A stretch of DNA of 64,000 nucleotides, from the NCBI RefSeq assembly GCF_056746865.1, contig NZ_CM163382.1. One strand, 5' to 3'. Below are positions 1 through 64,000 of the stretch, one piece after another. Position 1 is the first letter of the stretch; each line of letters opens with the position of its first letter. Made by a program: the position numbers and the translations under genes. The notes beneath the pieces are model-generated. The model was not told the origin of the DNA. It worked only from the letters and a program-made list of their open reading frames with translations, and ran no database searches.

Positions 1-718
1 GTGCTTCCGCCTGGAGGTAACGCCGTCCGTCAGTTTTGACCTCACATTTCATGCGATGGTTGCCACTCCAGCCCAGATGTACGGCCCACACCTCGCCCTG
101 CTGTTCTGAGAAACCGGGGGCACCGGCAATCAGTGCCGGAAAATGCTCATGGGACGTGCGGCCCCGGCGGTTCTCCAGCACAAAACCGTCATGTGTGAGA
201 CGGACCCTGTGCGGCTGAAACTCACGAGTCCAGCGTCCGTGGAAGGCCATGACTTCCTCTGCCCTTTCAGCCACAGGGAGCGTGATGGCGAAGCGGTTCA
301 CCTGCCAGTCCCCTTCACGGAGGTTCGTCAGGGCATGACGCATCTTCAGCACACCGGACGATGTCAGCACCAGTTCACTGACCATGCGCAGACCCGCCAC
401 TGCATCCTCACTGGTCAGGGTGAGTGATTCTCCGGCCTGTACCACGCTGATGGTACGGAACACAGGGGACGCATCCAGCCCGTTGCGGTGTCCCTCCAGC
501 CCCGGCGAGCCAAAAAGTCCCGCGCCGTTTTCGGCCATCAGCGTCAGTGGGGTGTCGGTATCCAGACGACCATTCGCAACCGGCCTTTCCAGGCTGATAC
601 AGTCATCCGGTGAAAAGTGTTTCAGGGTGGATCCCCACCAGACAATCTCTGCATACGGGTGGGTTTTAATAATCAGGTCTGAGTGGGGACTGGTCAGCCT
701 GCGGTACATCGGTTCCAT
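1..718 (-). CDS. alpha-galactosidase-like protein (RafA-like), 5' portion only; runs off the left window edge
   Basis: Open frame on the minus strand from ATG at 716-718 (translation MEPMYRRLTSPHSDLIIKTHPYAEIVWWG...) with GGAG about 8 nt upstream, translated by hand and open to position 1. Not in the ORF track because it has no stop in the window. Family assignment is from context (LacI-type repressor plus twin operators directly upstream) and an RRGRTSHEHFP-type motif recalled from GH36 enzymes. Confidence 0.5.
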   Translation of the reverse strand, partial: MEPMYRRLTSPHSDLIIKTHPYAEIVWWGSTLKHFSPDDCISLERPVANGRLDTDTPLTLMAENGAGLFGSPGLEGHRNGLDASPVFRTISVVQAGESLTLTSEDAVAGLRMVSELVLTSSGVLKMRHALTNLREGDWQVNRFAITLPVAERAEEVMAFHGRWTREFQPHRVRLTHDGFVLENRRGRTSHEHFPALIAGAPGFSEQQGEVWAVHLGWSGNHRMKCEVKTDGRRYLQAEA

Positions 719-755
719 AAGACATCTCCGTTTTCGGGTATGCCTTACTGTTGAT

Positions 756-790
756 CCGAATCGTTTCGGATAGCAACCGAAACGATTCGA
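756..790. promoter_or_regulatory. twin palindromic operator-like sites (ccgaatcgtttcgg / ccgaaacgattcga) between the repressor gene and the alpha-galactosidase start
   Basis: Two 14-bp near-palindromes at 756-769 and 777-790 that are reverse complements of each other (13/14), separated by 7 bp, 38-70 bp upstream of the ATG at 718. Confidence 0.55.
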
Positions 791-811
791 ATTTGTGAGC
801 GGGATTAAAAA

Positions 812-1822
812 TCAGGCGGAGGGAGCAAGCGTTGTCTTGCCAGGATGAAATTCCGGCTGCCAGAGTACTTGTAGCATTTCAGGTGAAACATTCGTGACCA
901 GCTGGCGTATCATGTCGTCAATCTGACGACCGACGCGATGTCGTGTTGACTGAAGAACTGCAGCCACATCCTGTTCAATAATACTGTCCTGCGGCAGACC
1001 ATCATAAACCACAAGAGAGACGGCATCCTCTCCGGACAGATGACCGGATAACTGCAGCGACATGGCCGCGCCATCACCGATCAGGTCACTGTCGGTAATA
1101 ATGGCCGTCGGGGGAAGCGGAAGTGACATTAACTCAGTCACTGCCTGGAAACCTGAGCGTCGGGTGGGAGAGACCCGGCGTAGCCAGGTCTCAGGCAGAC
1201 CATGTTCACTCAGGGCATCGCGCCATCCCTGACGTCGTGCAGTGACATAGGCACGGGAGTTGTCCTCACTCAGCAGGGCAATTCGCTGATGGCCCAGGGC
1301 AATCAGGTGCTGTGTGGCCTGCCAGGTTCCTGCATGGTTATCAAAGTCAAACCAGGCACAGGGAAGACCGGACGGCACCTGACCGAGTGCCAGAAACGGA
1401 ATACCGGCCTCCTGCAGGTGTGTAAGACGCGGGTCATTATCCATCGTGTGCGCCACGATAAGGGCATCAACCCGGCGGCTTTCGACCAGACGCATATAGC
1501 TGTGGCTGTCAGCCCGTTCATCATCGGCTATCAGCAGTAAGTCAATATCATGGCGGGCCAGTTCCCGGCTGATACAACTGACCATATCCACAAACACACT
1601 ACTGCTGAACAGTACAGCATGTTCAGGGAAGACCAGGCCGACCGCATCGGTTTTACCGGTTTTGAGACGTCTTGCCAGGGTATTCGGGCGATAACCACGA
1701 CGCCGAGCTTCCGCTTCTACACGTGCACGGGTCGAAGCGGAAACGTCCGAAAATCCGCCAAGCGCCCGGCTGACTGTGGTGACAGAGATCCCGAGTTCGG
1801 CGGCGATAGCCTTGAGTGACAT
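812..1822 (-). CDS. LacI-family transcriptional repressor (RafR-like), 336 aa
   Basis: ORF 812..1822; N-terminal LacI-type HTH (LKAIAAELGISVTTVSRAL); AGGAG 7 nt upstream of the ATG. Confidence 0.75.
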   Translation of the reverse strand: MSLKAIAAELGISVTTVSRALGGFSDVSASTRARVEAEARRRGYRPNTLARRLKTGKTDAVGLVFPEHAVLFSSSVFVDMVSCISRELARHDIDLLLIADDERADSHSYMRLVESRRVDALIVAHTMDNDPRLTHLQEAGIPFLALGQVPSGLPCAWFDFDNHAGTWQATQHLIALGHQRIALLSEDNSRAYVTARRQGWRDALSEHGLPETWLRRVSPTRRSGFQAVTELMSLPLPPTAIITDSDLIGDGAAMSLQLSGHLSGEDAVSLVVYDGLPQDSIIEQDVAAVLQSTRHRVGRQIDDMIRQLVTNVSPEMLQVLWQPEFHPGKTTLAPSA

Positions 1823-2156
1823 ATTTTCTCCTGCGGATAACTGAACAGCCCTGTCCCTGATGCGGGTGATCCGGGCAACAAACCTGACAGAGACGCCTGC
1901 ATAAGTGGTCGCGCTGTACCAGTATGAGCCTCCATCATCCTGATTTGTGTATTAACTTTCAATACCGGAGGACGATTTGATTACCGGTTGTTAGCAGGAG
2001 TGCGAATATTAGACCGACGGTGGAGATCTAAGACTCAGTGAGCATAGCGATACACTATATTACTGTAATTAAGCCAGTAAACTTCCTGTTCACTGGCTTA
2101 AACGCTAATGATGTATGCAGTTGAACAAGCTTTTAAACTAATGATTAATTGATATA

Positions 2157-3245
2157 TAGACTGGCCCCCTGAATCTCCAGACAATCAATATCACTTAAAT
2201 AAGTGATAGTCTTAATACTAGTTTCTAGACTAGTCATTGGAGAATAGATGATTGATGTCTTAGGGCCGGAGAAACGCAGACGGCGTACTACACAGGAAAA
2301 GATCGCTATTGTTCAGCAGAGCTTTGAACCGGGAATGACGGTCTCCCTTGTTGCCCGGGGATGGGGAGTAAGCTTAGTCAGCCGTTGTCTCCGGGTGTCG
2401 CGTGCGCAGTTGCACGTCATTCTCAGACGAACCGATGACTGGAAAGATGGTCGCCGCAGCCGTCACTCAGATGATACGGATGTGCTTCTCCGTATACACC
2501 ATGTTATCGGAGAGCTGCCCACGTATGGTTATCGTCGGGTATGGGCGCTGCTTCGCAGACAGGCCGAACTTGATGGTATGCCTGCTATCAATGCCAAACG
2601 TGTTTACCGGATCATGCGCCAGAATGCGCTGTTGCTTGAGCGAAAAACCGCTGTACCGCCATCGAAACGGGCACATACTGGCAAAGTGGCCGTGAAAGAA
2701 AGCAATCAACGATGGTGCTCTGACGGGTTCGAGTTCCGCTGTGATAACGGAGAAAAACTGGGGGTCACGTTCGCGCTGGACTGCTGTGACCGTGAGGCAC
2801 TGCACTGGGCGGTCACTACGGGCGGCTTCGACAGTGAAACAGTACAGGACGTCATGCTGGGAGCGGTGGAACGCCGCTTCGGCAGCGAGCTTCCGACATC
2901 TCCAGTGGAGTGGCTGACGGATAATGGTTCATGCTACCGGGCTAATGAAACACGCCAGTTCGCCCGGATGCTGGGACTTGAACCGAAGAACACGGCGGTG
3001 CGGAGTCCGGAGAGTAACGGCATAGCAGAGAGCTTCGTGAAAACGATAAAGCGTGATTACATCAGTATCATGCCCAAACCAGACGGGTTAACGGCAGCAA
3101 AGAACCTTGCAGAGGCGTTCGAGCATTATAACGAATGGCATCCGCATAGTGCACTGGGTTATCGCTCGCCACGGGAATATCTACGGCAGCGGGCCAGTAA
3201 TGGGTTAAGTGATAACAGGTGTCTGGAAATATAGGGGCAAATCCA
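2157..3245 (+). mobile_element. IS2 derivative with an internal deletion of about 242 bp (1089 bp here against about 1331 bp for intact IS2); no 5-bp target-site duplication
   Basis: Left end TAGACTGGCCCCCTGAATCTCCAGACAA at 2157 and right end GGGGCAAATCCA ending at 3245 match the IS2 termini as I recall them. Flanks gatata / atggcg are not a direct repeat. Confidence 0.85.
2248..3234 (+). CDS. IS2 transposase, in-frame fusion of the first ~37 codons of orfA (InsC) to orfB (InsD) created by the internal deletion; 328 aa
   Basis: ORF begins [37 protein letters not shown] (InsC N-terminus) and continues [20 protein letters not shown]... (InsD). The junction lies at a GCCCGG motif; the full identity of the short repeat on the two sides is from the remembered IS2 sequence. 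Confidence 0.8.
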
Positions 3246-3440
3246 ATGGCGCAGATACGCTTGCGGATCGATACCATTCAGACAGCAGGTCCGTTCACTA
3301 CCGTAATCGCTGCCGAAGAACACATTGATTGCCCCTCAATAATCCTGCCGTCAACGTCAAAATTGCTGGTCGGGCTCGACTTATTTAATTGTGTAAACAG
3401 GGCCTCTCAGCGAAAGGCCCTTATGCATCACCTGACGTCG

Positions 3441-4007
3441 TTAAAAGTCACTACACCCAAGATGACGTTCAATGGCACCATGCGATTCAATGTAAGCCTG
3501 GGCCGTCTGTTCCAGTACACCAGGCTCAGCGTTGTATGTGTTAGCTGCATCAAATACCAACGACAGCACTTCAGGATACACAACCAGATGTGTAATGGAG
3601 TTATCTTCACCCAATACTTTTCCCCACGCCTGCTCAATCAGATTTCTGAGAGCCACCACCTCACGACTCTTACACCAGACATCGTTATTAAGTAGCAGTA
3701 CCATAAGATAAGGAGTGGTATCGTTAGCCACAGCTTCCCTACTCCAGAGATAATATAAAGGGGCGGGCTCAACAGATTTATCTTTACGTCGCTTGCACTG
3801 CAAATATTCAGAAATTAGTCTATGCAGTTCACCAGTAAAATCAGCCATCAGAGAGGGAATTGCCTTGTTCATACCTGGGCAAGGTATTAATTTAAATTGT
3901 AATAATTTAATTTTAGGATGTGTAGCTGCAGCCCGATACAGAGTTGCAAGGACATACTTTTGCCAGAGGGCGTTACAGGAAAGCTTAACGTTTGATTCTG
4001 TATACAT
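3441..4007 (-). CDS. hypothetical protein, 188 aa, co-transcribed with the upstream Gp2-like gene (27-bp gap)
   Basis: ORF 3441..4007; AAGGTG 8 nt upstream of the ATG; no recognisable motif. Confidence 0.5.
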   Translation of the reverse strand: MYTESNVKLSCNALWQKYVLATLYRAAATHPKIKLLQFKLIPCPGMNKAIPSLMADFTGELHRLISEYLQCKRRKDKSVEPAPLYYLWSREAVANDTTPYLMVLLLNNDVWCKSREVVALRNLIEQAWGKVLGEDNSITHLVVYPEVLSLVFDAANTYNAEPGVLEQTAQAYIESHGAIERHLGCSDF

Positions 4008-4034
4008 AATAAATCACCTTACAGTTACAATAGG

Positions 4035-4649
4035 TCAAAAACCGCTGTAGCCAAAGTTACGCTGGCCTGATGCTTTAGTGTCGAGCTTCGTCAGATAATC
4101 CAGACGTGCCAATAAGCGCTGATATTGCTCAGGGAAATCAGGATCGTTAATATCCAGGATGTAACGTCCATTAGCAGGGAAATGAACTAGTCCCTGGTGA
4201 TCTTCCAGTTCTAACCCTAAGGCACTGTACCAGGCTCCGGTAATTAACCCTCTCAGGGTGTCAGAGCGCTCATAGTCTCCCAGGTGGTAATAGGCGTCTT
4301 TGTTAAAAAAAAGGCAGACGTGATAATGACATTTAAAGGACTGCGTATATTCTTTCGCCCAGATAATACAAACCGACGTTGCGTAGGTGCGTTTGCCTTG
4401 TTGTTTTTTACGGTGTTGATCTGCATTAATTTTCGCATTCAGCGAGTTACGGAAACGAGATATCTCTCCGGGACTCAGGTTAGGAAAACAGGTAATGGTA
4501 TCCCCGTTGTCAATCACGGGAGGATAATGGAGATCCACCCGTATTGCCGTTATTCTGGGATGTTTCTGGAAGAGGTTATTCACCTGGTTTCTTATTTTTA
4601 ACCCGTGAGCCTCATGACATTCACCGTAAAGAGTTTCAATCGTAATCAT
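4035..4649 (-). CDS. YagK/YfjJ-type (inovirus Gp2-like) protein with an HUH-type motif, 204 aa
   Basis: ORF 4035..4649; motif KCHYHVCLFF (H-hydrophobic-H) followed by tyrosines (YYHLGDY); AAGGA upstream. Family call is from memory of similar proteins in P4-like cryptic elements. Confidence 0.55.
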   Translation of the reverse strand: MITIETLYGECHEAHGLKIRNQVNNLFQKHPRITAIRVDLHYPPVIDNGDTITCFPNLSPGEISRFRNSLNAKINADQHRKKQQGKRTYATSVCIIWAKEYTQSFKCHYHVCLFFNKDAYYHLGDYERSDTLRGLITGAWYSALGLELEDHQGLVHFPANGRYILDINDPDFPEQYQRLLARLDYLTKLDTKASGQRNFGYSGF

Positions 4650-5030
4650 GTTAATATTCCTTTTGCTTTCAGAGATAAGCTAATAGTTAACCTACCCAAT
4701 ACACAACAGAAGCAGATATTAATATTCGTATCAGTAGTTCCCAGAGGGATATATAACCCTCTGGGCGTCAATTAAGAAAAACGCTACTGCCTATTGTTAC
4801 ATTAGAGAACAGGATGATGTTACACAGTTACATTAGAACGTTCTAAAACATTAAACAGAGTTATGATCTACACACAACTAATTATTTGGTATCAGAATAC
4901 CATTAGCTCTATTAGTACATCATATCCATCATTACACATATACTATACATCACAGATATAATATATATTACCTATCCAACGCACATGTATTTATAACTCC
5001 ATTGCCAATAGCTACAAGGACTATAAAATG

Positions 5031-5591
5031 TTACTCTGCAGTTAGATCAACAATACCTTTATCCCAGTGTCTTTTTACAGTGGATAAACTGATGCTTAAT
5101 TTTCTGGCTGTTTGTGACTGACTGAACCCCTGCAATTTCAACTGTCTGATATTTTTACTATGAATACTCCCTTCTTTCCTTCCTGGTTTTCTTTTAATTT
5201 TCCGGATACTGATGTCGGGAATTTTTCCTCTAATATCTGTAGGTAAAATCATCCCGGTGAGTACCACAGGAATATCATCACCATCCGGCAACTCTGATGA
5301 CGTAAAAAAGCAAATATTAATACCTTGTCTGATACTTAAAGATAAAACCTCCTGTATTTTTTCCGGCGTATTACCAAAACAAGTTAACGATTTAGTAATC
5401 AGAATATCACCCCTTTGCATATCCTGCGTCAGGAGTCGAACTAACCGTTTTCTGTCTGCCAGAGTATAATCCGGGCGACCCAATTCGCCTGTTAACTGCA
5501 ATAGTGGTTCTTTAAAATATCTCTGAATCATGGATTTTAAGCGATTAAGTTTTGACCATTTTTCAGAGTCTATGTATGCAAAACTCGCCAT
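5031..5591 (-). CDS. serine-recombinase (resolvase)-like DNA-binding protein, probably catalytically inactive, 186 aa
   Basis: ORF 5031..5591. GDILITKSLTCFGNT aligns by eye to the resolvase GDxLVVxxLDRLGRS motif but lacks the two Arg; N-terminus FAYIDSEK instead of YxRVSTxxQ; C-terminal HTH (TARKLSISLSTVKRHW). Confidence 0.5.
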   Translation of the reverse strand: MASFAYIDSEKWSKLNRLKSMIQRYFKEPLLQLTGELGRPDYTLADRKRLVRLLTQDMQRGDILITKSLTCFGNTPEKIQEVLSLSIRQGINICFFTSSELPDGDDIPVVLTGMILPTDIRGKIPDISIRKIKRKPGRKEGSIHSKNIRQLKLQGFSQSQTARKLSISLSTVKRHWDKGIVDLTAE

Positions 5592-5812
5592 AATGCCTCA
5601 AACTGGTGTCATGAATTAATTATTGAACCTGTTTTTTCCTGAGTCGCATTACTCTTTTCTAAGGGAGGCTCTCCAGATACATCGGAAAAGTACTCGATAA
5701 AAGAGTTGGCCACTCCCGGGTAATGATTGCTCTCTTTAACCTCAGAAAGCGGTTTCTGTTCATCATTTACACCACGATTTCTGGGTTATGAATAAATCTA
5801 CGCGGGCCATAA

Positions 5813-6559
5813 TCATTCATCTTCAAATGGGTTAATAATAATAACATCTCCACCTGTTCTGGAACTTTGTGAAACTTCCTCTGTTCTCAGAACAGGCACT
5901 ATTACAGCCTTATTATTGATATAAAAAATCGGAATATGAAAAGTACAAAATCCTGTACTACGAATCTGATGTCGCCTCACTGTTTCTTTCGTACCATACT
6001 CAATCAACTCATCTATCGGCAGGCAAACTGAATTGCAAAAGTCAAAAAAATAATCCCCAAAAACACTGGTTTTAATCAGAATGGTTTTATAAAACCCTCC
6101 TGCACGATTCAGGGTATGGGAAACTTTTCTGTTCGTGTAAATACAAATTGCCTTCTCAACTTTATAATATTCCAGCATTAAGGTCGCATTCTCTTTAATT
6201 CCCTTTTTCTCTGCAACTCCCATAGCATTTCTGGTGCTTTCATGAGGAAATATCTTTCTATCGAGAACATCATATTCATATTTGATATGCGATTTATAAA
6301 TGCTATGAAAAAACTCTCCTTTTGTTATTTCAGGCTTTGTCCGTTGCACAAATGGTTCCTCATTAAAAAACTGACGTAGCTTATCCTCTATATCAGTTAT
6401 AGCAGCAATATTTTCATTTATCCTGTTTAAAACAGGAGCCCCTAGCTTTAAACACTCTTTAATCGCTGCTGAAAATGAGCATTTTTTTAAATGCTGATAC
6501 TTTTTAATTACATCAGCTTCATATGTTTCTGCAAGAGAGAAAGAGACACGTTTCATCAT
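5813..6559 (-). CDS. hypothetical protein, 248 aa; N-terminal ~45 aa resemble a ribbon-helix-helix DNA-binding fold, C-terminal ~200 aa unassigned
   Basis: ORF 5813..6559; strong RBS AAGGAG 5 nt before ATGATG; AT-rich coding sequence; N-terminus KRVSFSLAETYEADVIKKYQ...FSAAIKECLKLG has a strand-helix-helix pattern. Confidence 0.55.
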   Translation of the reverse strand: MMKRVSFSLAETYEADVIKKYQHLKKCSFSAAIKECLKLGAPVLNRINENIAAITDIEDKLRQFFNEEPFVQRTKPEITKGEFFHSIYKSHIKYEYDVLDRKIFPHESTRNAMGVAEKKGIKENATLMLEYYKVEKAICIYTNRKVSHTLNRAGGFYKTILIKTSVFGDYFFDFCNSVCLPIDELIEYGTKETVRRHQIRSTGFCTFHIPIFYINNKAVIVPVLRTEEVSQSSRTGGDVIIINPFEDE

Positions 6560-6621
6560 GAAACTCCTTTTTAATTATAAAATTAAAATATAGAAATATA
6601 TATTATTCTGATACTATAAGG

Positions 6622-6849
6622 TTAATACTGACTAATCCACCACAATAGATCACTTAATAACCACCCACAGGATTTCTTTCCAATAGTTTTACGTGGCGGG
6701 AATTTTCCTTCACGTTCCAGTTTCCAGGCTTGTGAACGAGAAATAGACGTAATTTTCTGGCGTTCCTTTTCTCGTACCAGTCTGTCACAGGTGTATCCAT
6801 AGATCTTCAAAATTGATAAACGGTTCTCATCTCTTAACGGCTTCCACAT
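6622..6849 (-). CDS. AlpA-family prophage transcriptional regulator / excisionase-like protein, 75 aa
   Basis: ORF 6622..6849; SRSQAWKLEREGKFPPRKTIGKKSCGWLLSDLLWW resembles the AlpA HTH core; AGGAGA RBS. Confidence 0.65.
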   Translation of the reverse strand: MWKPLRDENRLSILKIYGYTCDRLVREKERQKITSISRSQAWKLEREGKFPPRKTIGKKSCGWLLSDLLWWISQY

Positions 6850-7628
6850 ATTGCTCTCCTTATATATTCATGATTTTCAGATTGTATATGCATGTGAGCT
6901 GCTCAAATCACTACATCTATCTGTAGTGGTATGCTGTTGAACAGCACCAGCAACTCACGAGCAAAACAATACATTTGCACAACCAAGAAATCAAATTGCG
7001 AGAAATGATTTAATTAACTGACTTCTAATAACACAATAACAACAAAGAAAGTCACAATATAAAAATAACTTAAACAATGCTTTTTGGTATACAAAATAAA
7101 AATCAAAATCACAATATTCGTAGGTTATTTTATGCAGACAAAAACAAAAAAAATCTTGTTATAATCTATGATATCAAGAGGAGGGGTAGTGACCAAAAAT
7201 TCTCCCCAGAAAAGCCCCCACAACATTAGTTTGAAAACGTGACGAAGTTCACAAAATTATCTTCTGGCGATAATAGAACTTGTAAGAGGGAGTTGATTTT
7301 TGCCAACTTTCTAAAGCTAAAGTGCAGACAAAAGATAATAATTGAATGAAAACGATACATATTTTCAGATGAAAGTGACGTGACTGTAGAGGGCTATAAC
7401 CGTAAAATCATTTGCGTCCTGAGCAATATGCAACAAAAGGGAATGCTCGTAAAAAAATCAGGAATAAACGCTAAGGATATCGTATTAGATTCAGCATCGT
7501 ATAATGCCACTGCATAACTGATTCCCATTTCGTAGAGGCTGTTAACTCTGTATCAATGTCCTGACAAAGGACTGTATCAAGTTTCTCTACTGGAAACAGC
7601 TATGCAATAGACGGAAGAATTTAACATT

Positions 7629-9233
7629 ATGGTAACTAAAAAGGTAAAAACAAACCACCCGTACTATCGTGTTTTATCCGGCACCTCCATGCCGTTTCCC
7701 CACATACATGAAGCTGTTTCCGAACAGTTGCTTCTACTCATTTTCAAAGCACGCAGATTGTATCTGGATCCAGAATATCGTCCTTGGTTTGATGAACAAC
7801 ATCGGATTCTCTCGGCATTACGCGCTAACACAAAACTCCAAAGTATTTTAGAGAAAAACAGAGAGAACTACTCCATAAGTGAGACCGATAATCCACTATC
7901 TAAAGATCTGTATGCTGCTTTTCAGGTTATGTGCCATTTATACAATGGTTTTGATAACAGACTCGTCAGCCTGAAAACCTGGGGAGATATGAACAGGGAA
8001 CCAACAGCAAAATTTGTCGGCCAAAATAGTGGTGGCTGGAAAACACCTGAGATGGAAGAATTCGTCAGAAACGATTTGTTCAATATTCTGACAGATTGTA
8101 AAGCTCATTGCTCACCACTTCCCGCTCTGGTTCGACAAGGATATTGCCATCAGGATCTTTCTGTTGCGCACTCATGTACTAAAGAATTACTGGAACAACT
8201 GAACCGATACCATCAAATTGATGAATCAGCGATACTTGCCAGAACCCTTGGTTTGGCTATTAACAACTGCTATCACTCAGAAACAGAGATTCCTGAATGG
8301 CTTTCTCCTTTTGAAAATGAATACAAAAGTCCCTGGAATTGTGAGAAACCAGATACTAACGATGTGAGTAAACTTAGAAAACAATTGCTAACAATCGGGC
8401 GTACAGAATTCGTGGACAAAATGTTTTCGCTAGCCAACAAAAATGCAACAAAGATAATATATGATGGATACGTTAAACTTTATGCTCTGGAAATATATGA
8501 ATGGTTAAATAAATTAGTGCAATATTTTAAAGGAAATGATTTTATTCGTTACACCTGGAAGTTCACAACAATTATTTCCGATGAAAGTGACACGATTGAA
8601 AACACCACCGCATGGGAAAAAGACTATTGTCAAATCACTATACAGCGTGATGAACTTCTGAAACTGATTTATACCAATACCCTGCAGGATGCAGCAATGA
8701 ATCTTGCTGATTGCCTGCAACAGGCATACACAGAACCGTTAAAAATGGAAATAAATTATCCAGGAATAAACATTGATGCAAAAGAGCGTAAAATTAGAAA
8801 ATCTATTGAATTCAGGAGCGAACTGAATAACTTCACAAACATCATGAAACAACTGGAAATATTTGAAAAATGGTATAACGCCAATAAAATTCTGTTGGTA
8901 AGTAACAAAAAGATACGTACAGAAAAGATTGACGTGAATATTCGTCTTGCAGGACTAAAAGGCTATGATCTGAATGAAGGTATACCTGATGGTCAGGGAC
9001 GCAGAATTAAAGATGGTGTAAATGAACTTGTCAAGGCAGATGGCAGTCTACAACTTCCACAAGATATCAGTGACACTTCGCTTAACCGTTACCGTCAAGC
9101 AGTTCAACACATTATTAAGGATGAGATCGACACGTTGCTGATAGCACAGAGGGAAAAAAATAAAATAAATCCATATAGCGAAGATAGATACTCGATACGA
9201 CCTTTATGGGGAAAATGTCTGGTCGAACAGTAA
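7629..9233 (+). CDS. hypothetical protein, 534 aa, no domain recognisable by eye; integrase-proximal cargo
   Basis: ORF 7629..9233; GGAAG upstream of the ATG; AT-rich; preceded by a 780-bp AT-rich non-coding region. Confidence 0.6.
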   Translation: MVTKKVKTNHPYYRVLSGTSMPFPHIHEAVSEQLLLLIFKARRLYLDPEYRPWFDEQHRILSALRANTKLQSILEKNRENYSISETDNPLSKDLYAAFQVMCHLYNGFDNRLVSLKTWGDMNREPTAKFVGQNSGGWKTPEMEEFVRNDLFNILTDCKAHCSPLPALVRQGYCHQDLSVAHSCTKELLEQLNRYHQIDESAILARTLGLAINNCYHSETEIPEWLSPFENEYKSPWNCEKPDTNDVSKLRKQLLTIGRTEFVDKMFSLANKNATKIIYDGYVKLYALEIYEWLNKLVQYFKGNDFIRYTWKFTTIISDESDTIENTTAWEKDYCQITIQRDELLKLIYTNTLQDAAMNLADCLQQAYTEPLKMEINYPGINIDAKERKIRKSIEFRSELNNFTNIMKQLEIFEKWYNANKILLVSNKKIRTEKIDVNIRLAGLKGYDLNEGIPDGQGRRIKDGVNELVKADGSLQLPQDISDTSLNRYRQAVQHIIKDEIDTLLIAQREKNKINPYSEDRYSIRPLWGKCLVEQ

Positions 9234-9315
9234 CTCACTGAGAAAGGGGATAGCAGTTCGCTATCCCCAAAGGAGACTTTCCAGCAAGATCTCAAAAAAT
9301 GAGACACTCAGCAAA

Positions 9316-47995: not shown

Positions 47996-48124
47996 GTCAT
48001 CAGTCTTAGCGCGCCTTCACGGCACTTTATTAATTCCTTGAACGAATATTTACTGCCATTTCATTCACGTCTATTCTTAATTTGCTGCTTTAAAAACAAG
48101 TGATTGAGCAAAATTGAGGCAAAA

Positions 48125-48490
48125 ATGGACTGGTATCTGAAAGTACTAAAAAATTATGTCGGTTTCCGGGGTCGTGCGCGGCGCAAAGAGTACTGGATGT
48201 TTATTCTGGTCAACATCATCTTTACGTTCGTGCTGGGGCTGCTGGATAAAATGTTAGGCTGGCAACGCGCTGGTGGCGAAGGCATCCTGACAACAATCTA
48301 CGGTATTCTGGTGTTTTTACCGTGGTGGGCGGTTCAGTTCCGCCGCCTGCACGACACCGACCGCTCGGCGTGGTGGGCACTGCTGTTCTTAATCCCGTTT
48401 ATCGGCTGGCTTATTATCATCGTCTTTAACTGCCAGGCGGGTACGCCAGGCGAAAACCGCTTTGGACCTGATCCAAAACTGGAACCTTAA
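48125..48490 (+). CDS. yhaH: DUF805 inner-membrane protein YhaH, 121 aa
   Basis: ORF 48104..48490; start at MDWYLKVLKNYVGFRGRARRKEYW. Confidence 0.8.
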   Translation: MDWYLKVLKNYVGFRGRARRKEYWMFILVNIIFTFVLGLLDKMLGWQRAGGEGILTTIYGILVFLPWWAVQFRRLHDTDRSAWWALLFLIPFIGWLIIIVFNCQAGTPGENRFGPDPKLEP

Positions 48491-49044
48491 AACAAATCTG
48501 CTCGCCGGATGTCTGACTCATCCGGCTTTTATCATCATGTTGATGAATGAATAATTTACTAATGTTTAGTTAAAATATTTCAATGTCGTTATATAAATTA
48601 CATATAAAAAACAACCATATATTTATCTTAAATATTAAAACCTTTATAACATCCGAAAAAGAAAGATACGAATAGCATTTACACAATACCCGGAATAGAC
48701 TTTCGTCACTTTTAATTAAAGGGATGTTTTTATGCAGTGGTATTTATCCGTATTAAAAAATTATGTTGGTTTCTCTGGTCGCGCACGTCGTAAAGAGTAC
48801 TGGATGTTTACTCTGATTAACGCCATCGTCGGCGCTATTATCAATGTCATTCAATTGATTTTAGGTTTAGAGTTTCCGTTCCTTTCTCTCATTTACCTGG
48901 CAGCAACAATCATTCCGGTCATTGCTCTGTGCGTTCGTCGTCTGCATGATACTGACCGTTCAGGTGCGTGGGCGCTTCTCTATCTGGTACCGATCATTGG
49001 CTGGTTAGTTCTGTTTGTATTTGCCTGTTGGTAATGACTCCAAC

Positions 49045-61636: not shown

Positions 61637-62626
61637 TTAAGCGTCAACGAAACCGGTGATTTGAGAGACGCGAGAAAGATCGATATTGCCGCCGGAAATA
61701 ATACTGACGGTTTTTCTGTTTTGAATATATTGGTCTAATTTACCGCTTAATAATGCAGCACATGCCAGAGCGCCTGCGCCTTCGGTGACGACTTTATTGC
61801 GCTGAATTAAGGCAATCATACTGTTTCTGATTTCATCTTCGCTGACCAGCACGATGTCATCGACTAATTCACGAACGATTTCGTAAGTTAAATTACCCGG
61901 GCGGGAGACATCACAACCATCCGCCAGGGTGCCGGTAGTTCGGTGCGTGGTTATTTCTCCGGAGTGGAAAGAAGCCGCCATGCCGTGAACGTTTTCTGAC
62001 TGTACGCCAATAACACGAATGGTCGGGTTAATAGATTTTATTGCCACCGCAATACCAGCAATTAAACCGCCACCACCAATTGGCACAATCACGTTATCGA
62101 CATCATAGAGATCTTCCATAATTTCCAGACCAATCGTTCCCTGGCCAGCAATCACTTTCGGATCATCGTAAGGTGGGATAAAAATACGGCCTTCCATTTC
62201 GACAATTTCGCTCACTTTAGCGATAGTGTCGTTGAAGTTATCACCATGCAGAACGACTTCTGCGGAGTAGTCGCACGTTGCCGCTACTTTGGATTTCGGC
62301 GCGCCTTTTGGCATCACCACTTTACCGTCGATACCCAGCATCGCGCAGGAGAGCGAAACCCCTTGCGCATGGTTGCCCGCAGAGCAGGCCACTACACCTT
62401 TACGTTTTTCCGCATCGGTCAGTGAACTTAATTTATTAAATGCGCCACGAATTTTAAATGAACCGGTACGCTGCATGTTTTCGAATTTGAGGAATATTTC
62501 ACCTTTGCAACGTTCACTAAAATAGTTGGAGCGAGGCATGCCTGTTTTATAAATTCGCCCAGCCAGTCGTTGTTTAGCTTCAATGATGTCATCAATAGCA
62601 ACCGGGAGATCGTATGTAATATGCAT
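61637..62626 (-). CDS. tdcB: catabolic threonine dehydratase TdcB, 329 aa
   Basis: ORF 61637..62626; PLP-lysine motif (SFKIRGA). Confidence 0.9.
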
Positions 62627-62724
62627 TATAAAACCTCTTAGCCTGAATTAAATATGTAGGTAACCGTAACCGACACCTGCAAAACAGACAGGTGGATTAT
62701 TTATGTTTAAATAAAAACAAATAA

Positions 62725-63663
62725 CTAACCAACTTCAATTAATTGCCTTCGTCTACACCCATTATAAGATGAATACTCTTTGGCTAATTCCACCAAAACC
62801 GATGCTGCTTTTTTAATACGATAATTTTTCGACCATACCGCGGCATATTGTGCCACAGGTAATGTTTCTTCAACCGGAATAGTAATAAATTGATTTGAAC
62901 CAAAAGGTGATGTCATATCACAAGGAATTACAGTTAAGAAATCAGCATTGAGAACAAGATTATAAATTGTCACGACTGAGTCGGTTTTAACGATGTTTTC
63001 AATACTGATGCCATTTCTTTGTAACGTGGTGAGCAGCTCGCTGTAGTACCCCATATTGGTTTGTGGCAACACCCACTGTTCGTTCTTCAACGACTCCAGC
63101 GTGGTGGTGCCGGTGCATGTTCGGGACTTACTGGCTACCAGCACAAACTCGGACTCGAACAGCGGCTCAACATGTAAATCCTGAAGCTTCATTTCTGCGC
63201 TTAACGTACCAATCGCAAAATCCAGTCGACCGTCGCGGATTGCCGGTAAGAACGAAGACAGTTGCGCTTCATACATAGAAACCTGCGCTTTCGGGAACAC
63301 CTCTTTGAACTTGTTGATCATCCCGGACATAAAAGTAAAACCAATCAATGAAGGAAAACCAAATGAGACTTCCACCACCGCCTCAGAAGACATACCGCTT
63401 ATCTCATTAACCATATTTTTCATTTCACGGGTAATGGATTCGGAACGGGAGAGTAACAATTGACCGGCAGGTGTTAATGTTACACCGGTATTTTTCCGCA
63501 CCACTAATTCCACGCCAAAATAATCTTCAATATCGTTAATGATTTTACTGACAGCCGGTTGAGTTAACCCTAATTCTTTTGCAGCCGAGCCGATAGAACC
63601 ACTTCTAATGACTTCCTGAAAGACTACCAGGTGCTGCGTTTTCGGAAGAAGAATAGTGCTCAT
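62725..63663 (-). CDS. tdcA: LysR-family activator of the tdc operon, 312 aa
   Basis: ORF 62725..63663; LysR-type HTH. Confidence 0.9.
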   Translation of the reverse strand: MSTILLPKTQHLVVFQEVIRSGSIGSAAKELGLTQPAVSKIINDIEDYFGVELVVRKNTGVTLTPAGQLLLSRSESITREMKNMVNEISGMSSEAVVEVSFGFPSLIGFTFMSGMINKFKEVFPKAQVSMYEAQLSSFLPAIRDGRLDFAIGTLSAEMKLQDLHVEPLFESEFVLVASKSRTCTGTTTLESLKNEQWVLPQTNMGYYSELLTTLQRNGISIENIVKTDSVVTIYNLVLNADFLTVIPCDMTSPFGSNQFITIPVEETLPVAQYAAVWSKNYRIKKAASVLVELAKEYSSYNGCRRRQLIEVG

Positions 63664-63726
63664 AACGACCTACGTTAATTACCTCATTGACGGCATGAAG
63701 TGTATCAAAATGAAATGAACAGGATA

Positions 63727-63742
63727 TGTGCGACCACTCACA
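63727..63742. promoter_or_regulatory. CRP-binding-site-like palindrome TGTGc-gaccac-TCACA upstream of tdcA
   Basis: 16-bp match to the TGTGA-N6-TCACA consensus 64-79 bp upstream of the tdcA start; the tdc operon is known to be cAMP-CRP dependent. Confidence 0.5.
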
Positions 63743-64000
63743 AATTAACTTTCAATACTTTCCATGGTATCGTTATTCCAATTAAATATCTTTATATATC
63801 AATAAGTTAAAGTATAAAAATCAGCATAAACCCTGATTTTTGTCAAAAAAAATGACGGGGATAACCATATTTTATGGCGATAACATCATTCGTTATGTGG
63901 TTAATACAAAAAAGGGGCTGAGACCATATTTCAAGCAATTACCGGATAATTACCAGGCAAATTTTGAGTTAAATTTAATGAGCAAGTTCTCAAATTTTAT

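Follow-up and report, generated by a model that had tools for sequence, protein, structure and literature searches.

Does a step in base composition that the eye picks out in a bacterial genome mark a true join between pieces of DNA with separate histories? The question is raised by an AT-rich stretch at positions 4650-9300 of a 64,000-nucleotide piece of contig NZ_CM163382.1 (NCBI RefSeq assembly GCF_056746865.1), here called the window, which is a portion of the Escherichia coli chromosome. The stretch sits in the integrase-proximal module (3291-11601) of an integrative island of ~44 kb at the tRNA gene ileX. An earlier note, drawn from the letters of the DNA, had taken it as part of a compositional mosaic: far more AT-rich than the backbone and than a raf-type segment at the left end, next to a 198-aa gene and an integrase gene closer to the backbone, and, together with an insertion sequence 2 (IS2) junction, a sign that the island had been put together from at least three sources.

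Here we give a probability of roughly 0.8 to the reading that 4650-9300 is the variable interior of the integrase-proximal module of a CP4-6/CP4-57-type island in the 3' end of ileX. The proposal of at least three sources holds, and the evidence for it is mostly comparative rather than compositional: the plasmid identity of the raf segment, a break in synonymous divergence (dS) at ~9300, and population counts of the pieces.

An ancestry break between two convergent genes

Read from left to right, the module consists of a yfjJ-like gene, yagK, yagL-like and yagM-like genes, alpA, an orphan gene for a 534-aa protein, the GNAT-like 198-aa gene, the integrase gene (int) and the attachment site attR (Table 1). 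We compared it with sister islands of the ileX type (L005, L007) and the thrW type (L004, L008), of which NZ_CP074856, NZ_AP021892 and NZ_CP150075 are examples. In 200-bp sliding windows, identity to these islands is 55-75% over the 534-aa gene, left of ~9311, and 90-99% from ~9400 through the 198-aa gene, the integrase and attR. The change falls in the short spacer between the stop codons of the convergent 534-aa and 198-aa genes, which holds a hairpin (9246-9268, 9-bp stem) kept by compensatory changes. Synonymous divergence shifts ten-fold exactly there: the 534-aa gene has a dS of 1.15-1.17, the 198-aa gene one of 0.05-0.20, and int, whose product is 98% identical to that of the sister ileX islands, one of 0.12. 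The core gene nfeF in the flank, at 0.09, is near the values of the int/198-aa block. The comparison of ileX islands, which the earlier note had named as a check, places the jump in identity and in dS at ~9311, and on these sequence comparisons the step at ~9300 is a true ancestry break.

Among the genes that the island variants have in common, the 534-aa gene has diverged most, with 57-61% amino-acid identity beside neighbours at 93-98%. This, together with the position of its homologues in accessory-gene slots of mobile elements, would suit an arms race in which the gene, along with alpA (79% amino-acid identity to the sister islands, dS 1.0-1.7), evolves fast under diversifying selection in an otherwise clonal island that exchanges no segments. 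We consider such a history very improbable. A dS of ~1.15 is near saturation, and the ratio of nonsynonymous to synonymous divergence (dN/dS) of 0.23-0.27 denotes purifying selection and therefore an old divergence joined by recombination, not rapid evolution. To the left of alpA the islands are non-homologous, not just divergent: YfjI (DUF3987) stands in the sister islands where the YagL-like and YagM-like genes stand here, no open reading frame (ORF) of 3300-11700 carries DUF3987, and nucleotide similarity to the sister islands returns only at 3381-3472. In addition, L007 and L004 share identical 534-aa genes (dS 0.006) beside diverged 198-aa genes (dS 0.20), a contrast that we read as a second, independent crossover at the hairpin-spacer junction.

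The int/198-aa block, at >=95% identity, occurs in 431 of 5426 genomes, and this AT-rich interior in only 256. The same block stands next to a different, non-homologous interior (YfjI, not YagL/YagM) in ~175 genomes, and ~250 further genomes carry the 198-aa gene alone. The architecture int, 198-aa gene, ~540-aa gene, alpA, YfjI, Gp2 is common to L005, L007, L008, L004 and a distant relative, L018 (29% identity). In the light of these data it is improbable that a single low-GC donor supplied the whole of 3291-11601 at once and that the GC steps (4650, 9300) reflect gene-to-gene variation in amino-acid content and intergenic DNA. The dS discontinuity at the spacer largely refutes it, and the ~175 genomes with another interior speak against it. 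So do the 198-aa gene, of which 87%-identical copies are found in the P1-like phage-plasmids SJ46 and RCS47 without other module genes, and the 534-aa family, which occurs in P2-like prophages without int or the GNAT gene. At least five pieces of separate history are distinguishable: the raf segment, IS2, 3291-4187, ~4187-9311 and 9311-11554.

Table 1. Features of the island portion of the window (positions in the window; GC3, GC at third codon positions)
Feature	Position	Strand	GC; GC3 (%)	Basis or remark
raf-type sugar segment	1-2155	-	~57	annotation of near-identical genome
rafA (alpha-galactosidase), 5' part	1-718	-		
rafR, LacI-type regulator	812-1822	-		then 333-bp tail in raf segment
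IS2 (IS3 family) copy, ~240-bp internal deletion	2156-3248	+		plasmid matches
Fused 328-aa transposase ORF in IS2 copy	2248-3234			
Conserved left flank of module, including 3' part of yagK homologue	3291-4187	-		PI24 similarity begins at 3291
YagK/YfjJ-like protein, 188 aa	3441-4007	-		Pfam YagK_YfjJ_C
YagK homologue, 204 aa, inovirus Gp2 / YagK-YfjJ family, putative Rep-like	4035-4649	-		PF11726, 4e-55
YagL-like protein, 186 aa, degenerate resolvase/phosphoribosyltransferase-like N-terminal domain and C-terminal HTH_7	5031-5591	-	37.8; 33.7	Pfam, YagL match
YagM-like protein, 248 aa	5813-6559	-	34.5; 27.7	newer PGAP annotation 'YagM family protein'
AlpA-family excisionase/regulator, 75 aa	6622-6849	-	40.4; 39.5	Pfam Phage_AlpA 2.5e-14; PHROG 2790 excisionase
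Spacer between divergent alpA and 534-aa genes, 779 bp	6850-7628		34	
534-aa orphan protein, mostly helical (predicted)	7629-9233	+	38.3; 34.6	
Spacer between convergent stop codons, 82 bp, recombination junction	9234-9315			identity to sister islands rises here from ~70% to >95%, at ~9311
Predicted GNAT-fold acetyltransferase, 198 aa	9316-9912	-	46.6; 36.2	ORF reaches 9942 from upstream GTG
P4-type tyrosine integrase, 438 aa	10042-11358	-	43.3; 40.5	Arm-DNA-bind_3 (2.1e-14), Phage_int_M, Phage_integrase (2e-10)
attR, native 3' 47 nt of tRNA-Ile (ileX), partial copy, right end of island	11555-11601	+		sequence

Composition of the module

The stretch is, as first noticed by eye, far more AT-rich than both the backbone and the raf segment: GC is 36.5% at 4650-9300, against 51.4% in the backbone (11600-64000) and 57.1% at 1-1900, with 50.6% at 1900-3300, 44.3% at 3300-4650 and 43.5% at 9300-11600. 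Backbone windows of 4650 bp have a mean GC of 51.7% (standard deviation 1.6, minimum 46.1%), so that the stretch lies ~9.5 standard deviations under the mean and lower than every equal-sized backbone window. Windows of 100 bp at <=30% GC make up 14% of it and 0.9% of the backbone, and its yagM-like gene has the lowest GC in the module. Unsupervised likelihood segmentation of GC sets breaks at 3530 (log-likelihood ratio, LLR, 107), 4625 (LLR 9.7), 9190 (LLR 11.6) and 11660 (LLR 69.7), which nearly coincide with the limits drawn by eye; the outer breaks, 3530 and 11660, are the only strong ones.

Several results weigh against our reading of the stretch. The two inner breaks fall inside the range of best splits in backbone stretches of the same length (median LLR 7.0, maximum 23.2; 5 of 21 at or above 10.2). 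GC3 is low over the whole module (0.28-0.46), the int and 198-aa genes included (z = -2.7 and -3.3 relative to 20 backbone genes with GC 52.1±4.1% and GC3 59.6±7.0%). The AT-rich part and the int block are not separable by dinucleotides (delta* 70; adjacent-backbone null 58±14). By composition alone the AT-rich part is not set apart significantly from the int/GNAT block. In E. coli this interior accompanies only one int allele, and the chimera may therefore have formed just once. The high-affinity motif of H-NS, TCGATAAATT, counted with up to 2 mismatches against a Markov-1 null, is not enriched (7 sites, 10.1±3.2 expected) and has the same density as in the backbone.

Composition alone firmly parts only raf/IS2, the whole low-GC module and the backbone. 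All island pieces have dinucleotide signatures far from the backbone (delta* 95-149; null 35-47, maximum 74), the 198-aa/int block among them (delta* 110; null 47±13, maximum 74). The earlier view that the 198-aa gene and integrase lie nearer the backbone is borne out for total GC and fails for synonymous sites (GC3 0.36-0.41 against 0.60) and for dinucleotides; the raised total GC of the 198-aa gene stems from its amino-acid content, GC at first codon positions (GC1) being 63.8%. A sliding analysis of GC and codon usage, also proposed there, finds 1-11600 not uniform, and the inner steps at ~4625 and ~9190 within normal gene variation. It is here that a single low-GC donor draws its support: GC3 is uniformly low, a GC1 of 0.638 explains the richer 198-aa gene, the inner LLRs lie in backbone noise, the dinucleotide signatures of the two blocks are indistinguishable, and the same pattern of a higher-GC int with lower-GC neighbours recurs in CP4-6 and CP4-57. 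We nevertheless retain an exchanged interior; the recombination junction is established by synonymous divergence and the comparison of populations, not by composition.

Low GC is an old trait of this gene pool, not a sign of recent arrival. The K-12 counterparts have 36-38% GC (yagL 37%, yagM 36%, yfjH 37%, yfjI 38%; intF and intA have 44% and 48%), and all host contexts examined show an AT shift of the 534-aa family, as in Klebsiella and in one other host, where it is AT-shifted relative to neighbour genes. Such DNA is probably kept transcriptionally quiet by Rho and H-NS in E. coli. Both are recognised silencers of AT-rich DNA (PMC5811629), and in K-12 the genes yagM, yagL and yfjI lie downstream of Rho-dependent terminators that rank with the strongest measured there (PMC9160355). 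With 36.5% GC against 51.4%, 4650-9300 has the low GC of silenced DNA and is probably silenced in carriers; because the H-NS motif is not enriched, the argument is one from composition and analogy only. Repeats in 3200-11700 comprise only short, chance-level families.

The backbone has low-GC pockets of its own. A small one holds the higA/higB pair (29341-30068), in which higB has the lowest values of the 20 backbone genes measured (GC 38.7%, GC3 39.0%); other low-GC kilobases lie at 48001-49000 (42.1%, roughly yhaH/yhaI) and 62001-64000 (41-42%, roughly tdcR/yhaB).

An orphan gene in the interior

The 534-aa protein has no family or solved-structure match. Its model is mostly helical and of fair confidence (pLDDT 78.9, pTM 0.80), and the predicted fold has no relative among solved or viral structures. 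The family is small and enterobacterial, with 39 representatives among 1.84 billion proteins. Homology to K-12 YfjH, whose gene has the same position in CP4-57, was considered and rejected (E = 0.56). A two-gene system with the GNAT-like gene was likewise rejected as an obligate pair: the genes recombine apart, and each is found without the other.

Homologues occur in several kinds of place. One of 43% identity lies in Klebsiella P2-like prophages (L009, L010 and L011; gene at 8001-9623), flanked by gpS (tail completion) and gpV (baseplate spike) and accompanied by a divergent 145-aa gene. Other homologues adjoin mnmE together with two small divergent genes, and distant ones (33-39% identity) are chromosomal (L012, 7062-9647; L017, 1974-4492). 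In the 29%-identity relative L018, YagK/YfjJ, DUF3987 and AlpA genes are followed by a divergent ~515-aa gene, an arrangement that suggests a long association of the family with AlpA-type islands.

Some details of these loci deserve mention. The Klebsiella homologue and its 145-aa partner have 43-48% GC, against 53-61% for the phage genes. In both L012 and L017 the homologue adjoins two small divergent genes, one of 88 aa and one of 104-107 aa, which are conserved from one locus to the other (63% and ~82% identity, respectively) and with which it may form a three-gene unit. None of these small partners (145, 88 and 104-107 aa) belongs to a Pfam family or has a counterpart in the window.

Between alpA and the 534-aa gene the spacer is long (690-900 bp) and AT-rich in all variants (L005, 8243-8971; L007, 9842-10533; L018, 2988-3891). 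It holds no sequence or ORF conserved across variants and no Rfam hit, and promoter-like sites are not in excess over shuffled sequence.

A different view of the locus would be that the interval from int to alpA is a cargo slot, and that the 534-aa gene, with or without the GNAT-like gene, is an unrecognised anti-phage or exclusion system with swapped alleles. We hold this to be unlikely, if worth keeping in mind. It is consistent with the homologues in the accessory slot of P2-like late genes and beside mnmE, and, suggestively at most, with their presence in several hot spots of mobile elements, the ileX and thrW islands included. In P2, defence genes are carried at hot spots among the late genes (bioRxiv 10.64898/2026.02.27.708500). 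The orphan fold would also suit it, and CP4-57 has the anti-phage genes abpAB and rnlAB nearby. Against it, no match to PADLOC-DB was found among eight island proteins, barring chance-level hits to the integrase, and no enzymatic or sensor domain was recognised. The 534-aa gene stays divergent from alpA even in L018, as a core island gene would, and the GNAT and 534-aa genes are not co-inherited. We put forward tentatively, and with more doubt than belief, that the helical 534-aa protein may define an unrecognised function of mobile elements, with phage exclusion or master regulation of AlpA-type islands as candidate roles, whose deeply diverged alleles would be exchanged at a conserved hairpin junction and whose family was captured independently by P2-like prophages and chromosomal sites.

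The conserved integrase end

In its structural model the 198-aa protein has a GNAT fold, and its closest fold relatives in bacteria are GNAT toxins such as AtaT and TacT. The predicted acetyl-CoA motif A (Q/R-x-x-G-x-G/A) reads RDVGLA at residues 98-103, at the beta4-alpha3 junction after the strand at 84-93, and R98, G101, L102 and A103 are invariant in 20 homologues. Searches of Pfam and NCBIfam gave no hit, and the sole match is PHROG 7522 (unknown function). Full-length copies at 83-87% identity are present in the P1-like phages SJ46, RCS47 and vB_EcoM-673R5, and residues 1-66 are 45% identical to PmgF of phage P1. Two sister islands show further arrangements around this gene: in the thrW island L004 (NZ_CP150075.1, 10688-11670) it directly adjoins the complete tRNA-Thr gene with no integrase between, and in L008 it is split by IS1, followed by a retron Ec67-type reverse transcriptase.

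The integrase combines arm-binding and catalytic domains, it lies at the island end, and the tRNA 3' sequence is repeated at both boundaries, as in islands that target tRNA genes. After 11601 the native sequence downstream of ileX follows, and then nfeF/yqjH; the empty site is represented by thousands of genomes without the module, in which 11555-11650 is continuous with an annotated and intact tRNA-Ile gene. Insertion at ileX is on record for integrative elements and the LAA island (PMC7545054, PMC7067040).

A complete tRNA gene is absent from the window (ARAGORN, Rfam), in which ileX is present only as the 47-nt 3' fragment. The complete tRNA-Ile gene is found in NZ_CP147083.1, a genome of 99.9% identity, where it stands ~44 kb further left (392734-392809). 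From it rightward come genes for DUF4942, CbtA/YeeU, RadC, antirestriction, DUF932, Ag43 and a GTPase, then insertion sequence debris, a type I restriction-modification system, debris of insertion sequences and a group II intron, the raf/scr sugar cluster, and then the content of the window. A distal GTPase/DUF932/antirestriction/RadC/CbtA-YeeU module is thus present between ileX and the cargo in that genome, outside the window. The T-arm of the complete ileX has the variant sequence GTTGGTTCAAACCCAAC, against the native GCTGGTTCAAGTCCAGC retained in the partial copy of the window; the 3' half of the complete gene carries 4 T-arm substitutions relative to the native fragment, 2 of them being paired stem changes. 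Such changes are expected if the attP of the island supplied the 3' half of the tRNA, so that carrier strains would, from the gene sequence, express an island-supplied 3' half of tRNA-Ile2.

Two side observations concern the flank. The window and NZ_CP147083.1 run out of register after sstT (~36900 on), and an indel near ygjV shifts the annotated coordinates downstream. Between nfeR and aer (13359-13459), naRNA4, a REP-type element, gives a sub-threshold Rfam match on both strands (36.6 bits; gathering score 59.5).

The yag genes and the left flank

To the left of the 534-aa gene, AlpA is known from CP4-57 as the activator of intA-dependent excision. The three proteins beyond alpA are homologues of the K-12 proteins YagM (31% identity over the full length, E = 2e-32, with relatives of the 248-aa protein found in E. 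coli only), YagL (36%, E = 2e-25) and YagK (59%, E = 2e-89). The YagK/YfjJ family resembles inovirus Gp2 replication initiators (Pfam). The 186-aa YagL-like protein has weak matches to HPRT and to Tn3/gamma-delta resolvase. The label 'Type I phosphoribosyltransferase' for it goes back to a stretch that weakly resembles HPRT (E ~3e-4) but has other residues in place of the acidic ones of the phosphoribosyl pyrophosphate motif; we did not adopt it, the protein being equally resolvase-like and a YagL homologue.

The left flank of the module is conserved in its own right, 3423-4187 recurring at 94.8-95.9% identity in unrelated microcin and CDI islands.

The raf segment and its IS2 junction

The earlier note had pointed to IS2 at one junction, and there the similarity to plasmid raf segments does end, at a deleted IS2 (2156-3246/8). 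Plasmids of E. coli and Salmonella carry segments, with an alpha-galactosidase gene and its regulator, to which the DNA at 1-2156 is 99-99.9% identical. Thousands of plasmid matches begin at 2156/2157 and stop at 3245-3248, in two pieces spanning ~1331 bp, and one of them is annotated 'IS3-like element IS2 family transposase'. The deleted IS2 is the junction of the raf cargo and the low-GC module, and raf plasmid similarity stops exactly at it. In strain PI24 the module is identical from 3291 on to the right, its left neighbours being IS5 and a GGDEF gene, and the raf junction is present in only 163 of 255 genomes that carry the module.

A proposed history of the island

In the history that we propose, related islands would have exchanged the interior by homologous recombination, with crossovers in conserved DNA on either side of it: at the right in the int/GNAT block and the chromosome, at the left in the yfjJ-like end. 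The hairpin spacer between the convergent 534-aa and 198-aa genes would hold a recurrent crossover point. AlpA and the YagK/L/M-type proteins may control excision and regulation of the island, and possibly its replication. IS2 would have brought the plasmid-type raf cargo in, or fixed its position.

The GC step seen by eye is, on this evidence, a real recombination junction. In such islands conservation can be far higher at the integrase/att end, where dS is backbone-like, than in the interior, and integrase typing therefore fails to predict island content. The raf sugar cluster is an instance of cargo moving between plasmids and this chromosomal island via IS2. Two uncharacterised genes are worth screens for phage defence or island biology, the fold-orphan 534-aa gene and the GNAT-like gene shared with P1-like phage-plasmids. 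The interest of the locus is modest. It resides in these two genes, of which the 534-aa orphan is the only mildly novel item, in a hairpin spacer at which crossover recurs, and in an int/att end whose divergence is like that of the backbone.

Comparison with known systems

Plasmid-borne raf clusters of Enterobacteriaceae match the raf segment at 99-99.9% identity; here it is chromosomal, placed in an ileX island and bounded by a deleted IS2. The sister ileX and thrW islands share the int/GNAT block and attR (91-99%), the insertion site and the order int, 198-aa gene, ~540-aa gene, alpA. They differ in a YfjI-type interior, a 534-aa gene that is 57-61% identical, an alpA that is 79% identical, and a left cargo of TOTE primase, group II intron and ABC transporter.

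CP4-6 of K-12 (thrW ... yagK-yagL-yagM-yagN-intF-thrW') resembles the island in having the complete tRNA gene at one end and the integrase beside a partial copy at the other. YagK (59%), YagL (36%) and YagM (31%) stand in the same order and on the same strand next to the integrase, yagL and yagM are low in GC (36-37%), and sugar-utilisation cargo and insertion sequences lie further in. It differs in its target, thrW instead of ileX, and in its integrase, which is unrelated (IntF ~25% identity, partial alignment). It has yagN/ykgV where alpA, the 534-aa orphan and the GNAT-like gene stand here, and lacks the extra yfjJ-like gene.

CP4-57 of K-12 (ssrA-intA-yfjH-alpA-yfjI-yfjJ) has the same plan of int, an opposite-strand gene, alpA and a YagK/YfjJ-family gene, the same distal module of GTPase, DUF932, antirestriction, RadC and toxin-antitoxin genes, and low GC in yfjH and yfjI (37-38%). 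It has YfjI (DUF3987) in place of the YagL-like and YagM-like genes, and because YfjI is absent here the island is not strictly of the CP4-57 type. No relation of the 534-aa protein to YfjH is detectable. The integrase has only 24% identity to IntA and lies here at the attR side, not beside the complete tRNA gene. The island is an ordinary member of the tRNA-associated mosaic class, in which a mosaic is not unusual, and is closest to CP4-6 by its yagKLM module and topology and to CP4-57 by its alpA plan and distal module.

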